Source of the DNA: Candidatus Heimdallarchaeota archaeon
GTDB lineage: Archaea > Asgardarchaeota > Heimdallarchaeia > JABLTI01
Assembly (NCBI GenBank): GCA_018238155.1
Contig: JABCTZ010000036.1
Coordinates: 352,001 to 416,000 of the forward strand
Reading direction: 5' to 3'
DNA length: 64,000 nt
In this document: piece by piece, positions 52,537-64,000 of the stretch
How positions within the stretch are numbered: position 1 is the first letter of the stretch
Layout: every line of letters begins with the position of its first letter
Program-made: the position numbers and the translations under genes
The notes under the pieces: model-generated
Databases searched by the model: none
What the model was told of the DNA's origin: nothing
The model's input: only the letters and a program-made list of their open reading frames with translations

Positions 52537-53292
52537 ATGAGCACTATTGAAAATGAAATTTTGACATTTGATGAAGTTATATCCACTCAAGAGTTAGCAA
52601 TGAAATATATTCGTGAACGAAAAAAAACTCATGGTTTAGTTCTAACTGCAACAAAACAAACAGGTGGACAAGGACGATTAGAGCGTAGTTGGTCATCTCC
52701 TATTGGTGGGCTCTGGATGACTACAATATATCAATGTAAAACACCTCTAGCTCAATTTGAAGGTTTTTCAGTTCGTTTGGGTTTGGAAATGATCAAGGAT
52801 TTTGAGAATTCAATTCCATTAAAATTTCAAATTAAATGGCCAAATGACTTGATAGTAAACAAGAAAAAAGTAGGTGGGATTTTGATTAATACACGAATAA
52901 AAGAAGATATTCTGACCGAACTCATAATTGGCATTGGTATCAATATTAATAATCAAACAGAAACATTACCTCCCGAAGTAGCATCAATTGCTACATCAAT
53001 GAGTGAAAACATGCTCGATAAGATTTCTATTAGTTCAGTTCAACACATTGTTCTTACAGCACAGAATAGGTTATTCCAAAATGTAGAAAGAAATGAGTTA
53101 GAAGATATTGCAGATATTTGGACCAAGAAATCTCTCAGTTATCAGAAAACTATTCGAGTAGTTACTCGAGAAGAAACATTGACCGGCGTAGAGCAAGGAA
53201 TTACTGAAAATGGTAGCTTAATTCTGAAAACAAATTCGAATGAATTAAAAACAGTTTCTATAGGAGATATTGAATTGCTGAGAATAAAATAA
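52537..53292 (+). CDS. birA: Biotin-protein ligase (no HTH)
   Basis: QTGGQGRLERSWSSP, KWPNDL, KKVGGIL, GIGIN. Confidence 0.95.
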   Translation: MSTIENEILTFDEVISTQELAMKYIRERKKTHGLVLTATKQTGGQGRLERSWSSPIGGLWMTTIYQCKTPLAQFEGFSVRLGLEMIKDFENSIPLKFQIKWPNDLIVNKKKVGGILINTRIKEDILTELIIGIGININNQTETLPPEVASIATSMSENMLDKISISSVQHIVLTAQNRLFQNVERNELEDIADIWTKKSLSYQKTIRVVTREETLTGVEQGITENGSLILKTNSNELKTVSIGDIELLRIK

Positions 53293-53316
53293 AAAATAGA
53301 AAGGGAAATTGATTCC

Positions 53317-63800: not shown

Positions 63801-64000
63801 ATGAATTAATTCAACAAATATCAAATAAAACCTCAAGAGAAAATGTGACAAAGTGGTTTGAAAAGAATAAAGCCTCACTTGCTGGTGATAAGAAATCGAA
63901 ATACCAGTTCAGTCGGAAATTCTTATTCGAAGTTCTTTCAATGGGTCATTCTCAATTTGCTCAATTTATTCGAGCACGAGGACCAAATACTCAAGTAAAT
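57896..64000 (+). CDS. Type I iterative PKS/FAS-like megasynthase, truncated by the window end (ER-like, ER, KS, AT, second KS)
   Basis: ATG 57896 after AGGAGA. In frame: KGAEAGG; QGPM..EGMECGGH..FAGGI; VAIVG..DAACASS..EAHGT..IGHLK..SFGFGG; FPGQGSQ..GHSLGE..AFHS; VTGIAIGLPG..RARGPNTQVN. Confidence 0.93.
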   Translation, partial: MVADTRFNQIMENKKPILAFNPLGLNDLGLVKAVNKAGGIGLINLERMTAQGYQAILIKCLSEITNIVGIRVVNKDQLNFILEHSSKQQSLILIIADVSLSKEQIKLAKEKRMSLIAEVISLEEAYDKKWADVFLLKGAEAGGRVSDETSFILTQQFAEAGLEFIVQGGVGIYTTPALFAAGAKAVVLDTQLYTMPECPLSKEVKDFLVKLDATDTKIIGDSTSYKYRVYARLATKIVKDFIKIEKDLLGLSLEERTKKIKQKIEDEKESFNSPTLANCLLPIGQDVSFINIFSKRFSSVEEVFDGLLEQTKKQIKNTLDNYPFKSGSDLAKDLGIKYPLIQGPMANISESPEFAKIIAEEGALPILALGSLFKNQSRNLIKKTKETLGSLPFGCGIIGLDANATARDNHLVIIKEIQPSLVVVAAGTIDLAKEVMSYGDIKTFLHSPSPLIFSEAIETDVRYLVLEGMECGGHIGILTSFVLWELSLHQLVRLQDKIKASGKKINVAFAGGIGDRFSAAMVAVIASALPDLMNSALWVGTAYILTEEIVDTGAVKPLYREQALDAKETVLLGETVSIRARTIPTPYAKVIVERELERIKDGISLKERKHLFERDNLGSTRIAALGEIWNPDGEDDKPNRFVPIDEKGQYEKGNYMIGQIVGSLRSIRTVKDLHMELIEESKRVVSTKGKSITKQFEAKDDSVKTINSQIEHDHTSPIPDDIPHGEGVAIVGLGGIFPDALNIDQYWKNITLGLYSVKEIPKERWSNDLSLFYSPDPFEPDKTYAKIAATIDDFKFNSLEFKIPPKVALRMDRVQQFALVAAKEALIDANILDKDNSNTAVIIGNSMGGEIRVDYNRRIFLPETYRSLEKCASFSNIDKGVWKKVKEELKVIYDSDLLSINEDSMPGELSNVIAGRVANVFNLRGKSMTCDAACASSLAALNISVKGLLDNEYDVVLCGGSDCSLDASIFVKFAKIGAISAEGSYPFDKRANGFVMGEGAGFVVLKRLSDAERDGDKIYAVIRGLGAASDGKGKGITAPNPIGQKLAIQRALDQAGVTFPDIQFIEAHGTATGVGDVVEMAVLNEMAENTPKSSIVISSVKSQIGHLKSAAGIASTIKTALALYHKKFPPTANFKYPNPKVAWETSPFYVTTEVKDWPQPVSGHRIAGISSFGFGGTNFHAIMEEYIPGETIGHLPKLFTKEELDSLVLRVSQMALHSGDGQGFTTVFDEASWENFYNENIVLETEPLFVGGTSDAALLKNLKALKTKIPKSTFALNGTGTRIHDFSQETMSALSQKKRIGIVSKSLDDLPSLIDSAISGQQDKAKRLILRNKGIFYGEDHSLGKIAFMFPGQGSQYVRMGKELWDKYDIVKEAFKEADEVTQTELGFSLTEIIFAIGKDDAEAKALLRKTEVTQPAIFAVNIGIYRLLRSFGIKPDFVAGHSLGEYAALVASGIVSFKDGLMAVIPRGKAMSLFESDDNGMMASVSSDAETIEEVLKSVKGYVIAANKNTPSQTVISGASPAIKEAIKIFIEKGITAIPLPVSAAFHSEIVAPAEKFLRESLEKLTFNKPSIALSSNVTGGIYPETRQEIIDLLCKQVYSPVEWMKQIENMYEEYGVRTFIEIGPKYVLTSFAKSVLNDKKDFVALASNHPKRGAMQHLNEVLAALGAFGYPLKIPNKDDSIYSEEFRNPTKRFFKRKAISIPSIAPSTSTPKVITKESPFDVLAFGDLASITKNDDFNDYLELQAPAINAFLKAGYDTYQNIIAKALETKKEIDRLNINTDAVGVTGIAIGLPGKNRKVFDDSNFDAILSGQNFIEKTSVQLREKIVEKNIVRLVKDAVKGAQFQSITDVSEVIKLAAQKGEFDLTKDYGVQAEFTEIFDVTFQLALAAGIEALKDAGIPLMPLKIKTSVGKEISKGWVLPESMRDETGIVFASAFPASNNLISIVSQSLADKYASKHKDETILLFDELIQQISNKTSRENVTKWFEKNKASLAGDKKSKYQFSRKFLFEVLSMGHSQFAQFIRARGPNTQVN

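Follow-up and report, generated by a model that had tools for sequence, protein, structure and literature searches.

A cluster of six genes in a Heimdallarchaeota genome likely encodes a conserved module in which an acetyl-CoA carboxylase and its biotin ligase, BirA, feed malonyl-CoA to an adjoining type I megasynthase, with a hydrolase releasing the product. The cluster lies at the end of a 64,000-nucleotide stretch of DNA (hereafter, the window) from a Candidatus Heimdallarchaeota archaeon (GenBank assembly GCA_018238155.1, contig JABCTZ010000036.1, positions 352,001 to 416,000 of the forward strand). The reading starts from what the sequences show: which genes are present, that their motifs are intact, that the linkage is conserved, that each gene is single-copy, and how one specificity residue varies. 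From these observations we infer which way the carboxylase runs and on what substrate, that malonyl units are loaded, what the hydrolase does and what the product is.

The source genome, referred to as the host genome, is a metagenome-assembled genome (MAG) of 4.08 Mb in 46 contigs, with an estimated completeness of 90.7% and contamination of 5.9%; the locus is on a contig of 461 kb. Genes and domains were called from a listing of open reading frames (ORFs) and from Pfam and NCBIfam scans. Comparisons within the phylum used a sample of 301 Asgard genomes, with families labelled f1, f2 and so on, the host genome belonging to f1.

ORFs and domain scans agree on six contiguous genes: birA, an alpha/beta-hydrolase gene, accB for a biotin carboxyl carrier protein (BCCP), accC for a biotin carboxylase (BC), a PccB-type carboxyltransferase (CT) gene and a megasynthase gene (Table 1). 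A first-pass annotation of the window had named these genes as neighbors and had placed the CT 57 bp before the synthase on the same strand; both statements hold, with the CT stop codon ending at 57838 and the synthase ATG at 57896.

In the proposed mechanism, BirA would activate a three-subunit carboxylase (the products of accC, accB and the CT gene) that works as an acetyl-CoA carboxylase (ACC). The resulting malonyl-CoA would be loaded by the FabD-like acyltransferase (AT) of the adjoining, iterative synthase, which would both activate its carriers and assemble an acyl chain with full reduction. Finally, the alpha/beta-hydrolase of the cluster would release that chain as a free acid.

A Single Carboxylase and a Single Evident Consumer

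Each of the six genes has one match in the host genome (for birA, by tblastn), and accC has only one true copy. The cluster BCCP carries the only biotinyl/lipoyl domain above the Pfam cut-off, and the synthase holds both the only PF00698 (Acyl_transf_1) domain and the only PP-binding (carrier) domains of the genome. Because birA, accB, accC and the CT gene are single and only one biotinyl domain is detected, the cell's whole biotin system appears to be dedicated to one carboxylase, and the adjoining synthase is the only evident user of malonyl-CoA by domain content. A BioB/BATS domain was not found in the host genome, and a BioY transporter is present. The parts of a biotin-dependent acyl-CoA carboxylase are all in place: a complete BC, a carrier with the biotinyl motif SMKM and an adjoining BirA, and a full-length CT of the PccB/12S type.

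The Specificity Residue of the Carboxyltransferase

The CT matches the PccB structures 1xnw/1xnv at 667 bits. Its scores against the mutant structures D422I, D422V and D422L are slightly higher than its score against wild-type PccB, because an isoleucine stands at the position of D422. Its GGAY-I-VMG segment aligns to GGAY-D-VMG of Streptomyces coelicolor PccB, which places Ile434 (numbered from the TTG at 56213; codon 57512-57514) at this site. According to the account of Diacovich 2004 given in PMC7835884, D422I makes the propionyl-CoA-specific PccB accept acetyl-CoA also, and the reciprocal change, I420D in the acetyl-CoA-accepting AccB, restricts that enzyme to propionyl-CoA. By this residue, the CT of the cluster would be of the acetyl-CoA-accepting, AccB-like type. 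The position is isoleucine in every synthase-linked CT, a set of about 65 loci.

One could suppose instead that the enzyme is a general propionyl-CoA or acyl-CoA carboxylase of propionate or amino-acid catabolism, and that its place beside the synthase means nothing. Its best PDB and NCBIfam matches are indeed named propionyl-CoA carboxylase beta or MmdA, and Asgard families that lack the synthase often have CT homologues at 53-63% identity. However, those homologues have Asp (6/6 in f11, 2/2 in f18) or Val (f17, f20) at the specificity position rather than Ile, and the Asp- and Val-type genes lie within ~4-10 kb of mutase genes. Methylmalonyl-CoA mutase itself was not found in the host genome or in the other f1 genomes (0/10), and it is present in 2/29 genomes of f2, 74/76 of f11 and 18/19 of f17. 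Genomes with both pathways keep the two enzymes apart: in f4, which has mutase and synthase, the linked CT has Ile and a second CT has Asp in 3/3 genomes. A maximum-likelihood tree draws the same line, with 19 unlinked CTs separated from 30 linked ones plus one unlinked duplicate by a branch with an SH-aLRT support of 93. Given also that the adjacency to the synthase is conserved through families and rearrangements, a general catabolic role is improbable.

The direction of the reaction is a second point at which the reading could fail, since the best NCBIfam match of the CT is TIGR01117 mmdA (758.8 bits, under the cut-off of 998.8), and an MmdA-type enzyme would run as a methylmalonyl- or malonyl-CoA decarboxylase. 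Decarboxylases need no ATP-dependent biotin carboxylase, yet a gene for one is always linked, and no membrane beta subunit is encoded in the locus; this option is very improbable. The first-pass proposal that the carboxylase supplies malonyl-CoA is thus supported by the sole biotin enzyme, the sole AT, the isoleucine of the CT and the malonyl-type AT motifs in 9/9 orthologues, and the carboxylase is probably a dedicated malonyl-CoA supply for the synthase.

Conservation of the Linkage Across Asgard Archaea

Among 41 relatives, the synthase occurs in f1, f2, f4, f5 and f6, and was not found in f3 (0/14). The CT gene lies directly 5′ of the synthase in 19/19 of the relatives' loci, and also in all of the ~38 named Asgard records that include upstream DNA, which span five or more families. 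The remainder of the set stays close by in varying order. For example, f1 and f5 have birA, then hydrolase-accB-accC, then CT-synthase; f2 and Loki-type records have birA, CT-synthase, and hydrolase-accB-accC directly downstream; and f4 has accC-accB-CT-synthase on a single strand. In nearly all Asgard loci, birA adjoins the CT gene. The set therefore survives rearrangement, and the linkage that had been noticed in the window alone proves to be conserved, with the CT-synthase adjacency seen in every locus examined. Some Heimdallarchaeota records of f2 (L059, L075, L094) show a tandem arrangement of birA, CT, (accC), a second CT and the synthase, in which both CTs are of the Ile type.

Orthologues of the synthase, 3,200-3,800 aa in length, are present in 57/301 Asgard genomes. 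The closest public copies are from Candidatus Heimdallarchaeota, the best of which reaches 87% identity in the first 1,200 residues. Two closed chromosomes (Ca. Heimdallarchaeum aukensis and H. endolithica), a Hodarchaeota MAG and Ca. Harpocratesius repetitus contain copies that are more distant; these too are among the ~38 records with the CT upstream. A mis-binning of bacterial DNA into an archaeal MAG might be suspected from the bacterial origin of the closest non-Asgard synthase relatives and from the 5.9% estimated contamination. Against this stand the length of the contig, a GC content that fits the surroundings, the presence of the cluster in two closed Heimdallarchaeum chromosomes and on a 4.36-Mb Harpocratesius contig, and the family-consistent divergence of the 57 Asgard genomes; mis-binning is barely credible. 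A full cluster with ~62% synthase identity is also found in record DATKZI010000044.1 (L074), titled "Candidatus Bathyarchaeia archaeon"; the title is probably a mislabel, since the record corresponds to a genome of the host genus (G010).

Bacterial relatives of the synthase (Desulfobacterales, Spirochaetes and Bacteroidales; 30-34% identity) are arranged otherwise. A CT gene lies upstream in 0/38 and 8 kb downstream in 1/38, and the cluster hydrolase stands beside the synthase in 0/38. Because the upstream CT and the hydrolase are missing from these bacterial loci, the supply genes appear to be an Asgard-specific addition to a synthase family that stands alone in bacteria. A bacterial synthase without supply genes makes sense if its host already has a housekeeping ACC for a fatty-acid synthase of type II (FAS II).

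Strict co-occurrence of CT and synthase at the level of the phylum was rejected, as CT homologues occur in 145/301 genomes vs. the 57/301 with the synthase. The association appears limited to the Ile-type CT lineage, in which it is not absolute (f10 and f24, discussed below). Outside the host class, the match is exact in two families: the 5/68 genomes of f14 with this CT are the same five that have the synthase, as are the 3/7 of f27.

Architecture of the Megasynthase

The synthase is 3,574 aa long and extends past the end of the window. Its domain order by Pfam and NCBIfam is enoyl reductase (ER), ketosynthase (KS), AT, KS-like, two acyl carrier proteins (ACPs), ketoreductase (KR), dehydratase (DH) and phosphopantetheinyl transferase (PPTase). 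The second KS-like domain retains its Cys, the DH belongs to the polyketide type (PF14765), and the C-terminus carries the fused PPTase. With this order the protein has every activity predicted to be needed for activation of its own carriers and for full reduction of the chain. It does not follow either canonical order of type I FAS, i.e., AT-ER-DH-MPT-ACP-KR-KS-PPT or KS-MAT-DH-ER-KR-ACP-TE (MPT, malonyl/palmitoyl transferase; PPT, phosphopantetheinyl transferase; MAT, malonyl/acetyl transferase; TE, thioesterase). A domain scan of the full-length synthase found no thioesterase or other off-loading domain. The description of the cluster as a complete biosynthetic system is fair at the domain level, with ER, KR, DH, ACP and PPTase all in cis.

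In acyltransferases of this kind, xAFH marks malonyl and YASH methylmalonyl specificity. The host AT reads GQGSQ, GHSLGE and SAAFHS, in keeping with the AFHS type assigned to it at first pass, and the motifs GQGSQ, GHS(L/M)GE and xAFH(S/T) recur in 9/9 orthologues. By the motif rule, the AT is predicted to be malonyl-specific.

The synthase of f4 offers a further indication of the product. It is without the ~700-residue N-terminal part that contains the FabK-type ER and has four carriers instead of two, while a discrete gene for a FabI-type enoyl-ACP reductase (PF13561, 237 bits; L037:11926-12717, G014) directly follows the synthase. Since this gene replaces the missing ER by a non-orthologous enzyme, its presence points to selection for enoyl reduction and therefore for a saturated chain.

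The Cluster Hydrolase

The hydrolase had been reported as a Ser-Asp-His enzyme, and its triad (S108/D198/H227) is indeed invariant in 15 orthologues of 25-62% identity. The nucleophile elbow reads G-V/E-S-L/F-G (GxSxG), and Asp and His follow in the canonical order of serine alpha/beta-hydrolases; the AlphaFold2 model has a pLDDT (predicted local distance difference test score) of 92. The orthologue is single-copy and always in the cluster in f1 (9/11), f2 (28/31), f5 and f6; searches of f3 (0/22) and f7 (0/2), two families with no synthase, did not find it. A role as a BioH-like pimeloyl-ester esterase is unlikely, as no BioB/BATS domain was found in the host genome, which has BioY instead.

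The first-pass annotation also held that the hydrolase releases or edits chains. Its conservation, its restriction to the cluster and the want of a thioesterase in the synthase favor release, and the family to which it belongs does not. With no TE in the synthase and no PlsX detected in the host genome, release of a free acid is the most economical role; that the hydrolase is a chain-release enzyme giving free acid is plausible, with the scales close to level.

Observations Weighing Against the Module

Several observations weigh against the module as proposed. At the level of the genome, "not found" in the host does not equal "absent", because the host genome is a MAG with the completeness and contamination given above. 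At the level of the locus, birA is on the plus strand, hydrolase-accB-accC on the minus strand and CT-synthase on the plus strand, so that the cluster is predicted to form three transcription units with two divergent promoter regions and not one co-directional operon. The 57-nt spacer between CT and synthase also contains a T-run and a TATA-like box. With three units and such a spacer, either read-through from the CT gene or a promoter of its own could drive the synthase.

At the level of the enzymes, the specificity residue is described in PMC7835884 as "important but not sole determinant". In addition, f10 (L141, G043) and f24 (L147, G131) have Ile-type CTs close to birA and accC, and in these families neither the N-terminal query of the synthase nor the mutase was found; a KS-AT query, run on f24 and not on f10, was also empty. 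Ile-type carboxylases can thus be put to some other use. Both carrier domains of the synthase read GIDTVK, with Thr2389 (L001:7165-7167) and Thr2483 (L001:7447-7449), beyond the end of the window, at the usual phosphopantetheinyl-Ser site, and the D-S-(L/I) motif is not seen. This threonine is a family-wide trait and not decay, because it is common to nearly all Asgard orthologues and, among the bacterial relatives, to 77/77 carriers; in H. endolithica, 2/3 carriers have Ser.

As for the hydrolase, no thioesterase match was obtained (PF00975 is not among its 10 Pfam hits, and there is no NCBIfam equivalog). Its fold neighbors are generic esterases: the nearest folds and profiles are the thermostable TTL lipase 7q4j, PET46, feruloyl esterases and monoacylglycerol lipases, although the fungal hydrolases GrgF and DcsB, which act in release from polyketide synthases (PKSs), are also among the matches. 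Moreover, f4 has the synthase and, at the threshold used, no hydrolase (one weak match in 12). These points favor an arrangement in which the carboxylase still supplies the synthase, and the hydrolase is instead a lipase or esterase acting on finished ester lipids, or an editor of mis-primed carriers, the chain leaving by another exit such as direct transfer. Such an enzyme would not be expected to stay in the cluster as a single copy and to move with accB-accC on rearrangement, nor to be missing from the searched families without the synthase; and the synthase without an off-loading domain would be left with no PlsX or PlsC found in the host genome to take acyl-ACP. A non-release role is thus unlikely, if a good deal less so than the catabolic and decarboxylase options. 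The module with hydrolase release remains the preferred reading.

Comparison with Known Systems

The closest described bacterial systems are the "Type S" and "Type R" secondary lipid synthases defined by Shulse & Allen 2011 (PMC3098273), a survey that included no archaea. Its authors suggested that the Desulfobacterium host may use Type S as its core fatty-acid synthase, and they noted an ACC gene in one Type R cluster. The Asgard synthase resembles the Type S enzyme of Desulfobacterium autotrophicum HRM2 in its PfaA-like character, its KS-AT-KS/CLF-tandem ACP-KR core (CLF, chain-length factor) and its associated PPTase, and it holds the full domain set that defines the two types (KS-MAT-KS/CLF-tandem ACP-KR plus PPTase). 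The likeness is one of domain content; the nearest non-Asgard relatives are Desulfobacterales MAGs. These relatives match synthase residues 9-1188, including the N-terminal FabK-like ER, and share the GIDTVK carrier motif. In contrast to the Asgard loci, they have no carboxylase, BirA or hydrolase adjoining, and over the matching region the Asgard synthases are shorter.

Among carboxylases, AccB and PccB of S. coelicolor and AcCCase of Thermobifida fusca share the CT type and the specificity position, the host Ile being the AccB-like state. BC and BCCP are separate small proteins in the host, whereas actinobacterial carboxylases have them in one alpha subunit, and no epsilon subunit is evident in the host. 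Characterized archaeal acyl-CoA carboxylases are those of the 3-hydroxypropionate/4-hydroxybutyrate cycle of Metallosphaera and Acidianus and the haloarchaeal propionyl-CoA carboxylase. They have the same three-subunit make-up of BC, BCCP and CT, but they serve carbon fixation or propionate metabolism, whereas the host carboxylase is linked to an ACP-dependent synthase in a genome in which no mutase was found.

By the general account, archaea have no FAS I, FAS II, ACP or ACP synthase, and a 2024 preprint (bioRxiv 10.1101/2024.07.05.601840) states that they encode neither FAS I nor FAS II and that nearly all lack ACP. The fatty-acid synthase complex of Sulfolobus presented in that work is ACP-independent, CoA-based, dependent on thiolase and DUF35, and independent of malonyl-CoA. 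The Asgard locus bears on the same question of how archaea make fatty acids and, by its domain content, would be dependent on both ACP and malonyl-CoA. It thus places a carrier-dependent synthase in archaea, and most Heimdallarchaeia and some Loki-type lineages keep this synthase intact together with a distinct carboxylase lineage. A search of the open literature found no description of a carboxylase-synthase module in archaea, the only mention being of a "novel PKS cluster" in 2020. Biosynthetic clusters with their own precursor carboxylase are known from bacteria; the conserved Asgard occurrence is new, as are the placement of the cell's only biotin-dependent enzyme in such a cluster and a signature of sequence and context that separates the CT from its propionate-pathway paralogue. 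Ile vs. Asp at the CT position, taken with genomic context, can serve as a marker for two carboxylase roles in Asgard genomes. How isoprenoid-ether membranes gave way to fatty-acyl-ester ones is an unsolved problem of eukaryogenesis. The cluster bears on this lipid divide, since it suggests, in a form open to test, how archaea usually credited with no such machinery could make fatty chains.

A Possible Downstream Lipid Route

In Firmicutes, fatty-acid kinase (FakA/FakB) yields acyl-phosphate for PlsY, a route with which a free acid released by the hydrolase would fit. The host genome has six PlsY genes, 11 DegV (FakB-like) genes and one FakA-like gene, and an operon on contig C6 (G000:C6:63849-66403; L130:1278-4060) joins FakA-like (Dak2 plus FakA middle domain), DegV and PlsY. 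Neither PlsX nor PlsC was found in the host genome; unlike the Firmicute route, the host would thus have no PlsC, and acyl-ACP has no known direct exit for want of PlsX. Both plsY and plsC have been reported from Asgard genomes before (PMC13400652, citing Coleman 2019 and Manoharan 2019). Within the phylum sample, the FakA-like domain is confined to the class of the host. Strict co-occurrence of FakA and synthase was rejected: FakA is missing from f14 and f27, which have the synthase, and FakA-like hits occur without a synthase in f7 and in part of f3.

The only tie between this route and the cluster is a DegV/FakB-like gene 2.2 kb upstream of birA (window 49249-50358, plus strand). It has an N-terminal extension of ~84 residues and is the most divergent of the 11. 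A tentative and rather unlikely scheme is that the Heimdall group makes saturated fatty acids de novo on the synthase, using carriers with Thr, releases them by the hydrolase, converts them to acyl-phosphate by FakA-like and DegV proteins, and passes them to glycerol phosphate by PlsY. If true, an acyl-ester lipid route of bacterial and eukaryotic style would be native to the closest archaeal relatives of eukaryotes.

A Palindrome in the Divergent Promoter Region

The region between accC and the CT gene contains two copies of the palindrome TTTTAC(T/A)GTAAAA, at 56103-56115 and, with one mismatch, at 56145-56157. Six further species of the genus keep both copies. The palindrome recurs upstream of bioY, at a distance of 67 bp in the host (G000:C20:116288; L124:2489) and 82 bp in G009, and a half-site precedes bioY in two more species. 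The strict 13-mer occurs five times in the genome vs. 1.35 expected. A regulon defined by the 11-mer core TTTAC(A/T)GTAAA was rejected, as 11 occurrences vs. ~12 expected show no enrichment. The count of the 13-mer and its conservation across species are suggestive, and the palindrome is a candidate operator of a biotin/lipid regulator. BirA itself has no DNA-binding (repressor) domain of the helix-turn-helix (HTH) type.

Gene Layout and Neighboring Genes

Coordinates of the features are collected in Table 1. The accC and accB genes overlap by 1 nt. The mechanical ORF call starts the CT gene at the TTG at 56213, and an alternative ATG at 56240 gives a protein of 532 aa. The ATG is probably the true start, because AGGAG lies 8 nt upstream of it and alignments of the relatives begin there.

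Table 1. Features of the cluster (positions are those of the window; residues are those of the synthase).
Feature	Position	Strand	Evidence
birA	52537-53292	+	TIGR00121 161.9 bits; PF03099 and PF02237; no HTH
alpha/beta-hydrolase, 253 aa	53317-54078	-	Pfam Hydrolase_4/Abhydrolase_1; Ser108-Asp198-His227
accB (BCCP)	54093-54584	-	PF00364 56 bits; biotinyl-Lys122 in SMKM, residues 120-123
accC (biotin carboxylase, ATP-grasp)	54584-56059	-	PF00289, PF02786, PF02785 all full length; NF006406 595 bits
Divergent accC/CT promoter region, 180 bp	56060-56239	.	two palindrome copies
CT (12S/PccB type, fused alpha/beta)	56240-57838	+	PF01039 643.7 bits, positions 2-492 of 493
CT-synthase spacer, 57 nt	57839-57895	+	T-run, TTTTATAT box, AGGAGA ribosome-binding site
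Megasynthase, first 2,035 of 3,574 codons	57896-64000	+	intact ORF on contig, to window-equivalent 68620; full gene L001:1-10725
NMO-like half, residues 1-330			precedes FabK/NMO-type ER
FabK/NMO-type enoyl reductase, residues about 331-680	58886-59935	+	PF03060, TIGR03151
Ketosynthase, residues 726-1187	60071-61456	+	PF00109, PF02801, PF16197; TIGR02813 PfaA-type; Cys934, His1068, His1106
Acyltransferase, residues 1345-1643	61928-62824	+	PF00698; TIGR00128 fabD 250.9 bits (cut-off 261)

Elsewhere in the window, a 444-aa ORF (43251-44585) with a weak AATase match has no PDB or NCBIfam match. Genes for a BpsA-type branched-chain polyamine synthase and S-adenosylmethionine decarboxylase lie directly upstream of birA (window 50799-52362, minus strand). 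This polyamine neighborhood is kept within the genus (55-83% identity) and not beyond, and it is probably unrelated to the cluster. Directly 3′ of the synthase is a 615-aa TPR-containing gene (L001:10844-12691), which is absent from the loci of other families and kept in f1 with 54-87% identity.

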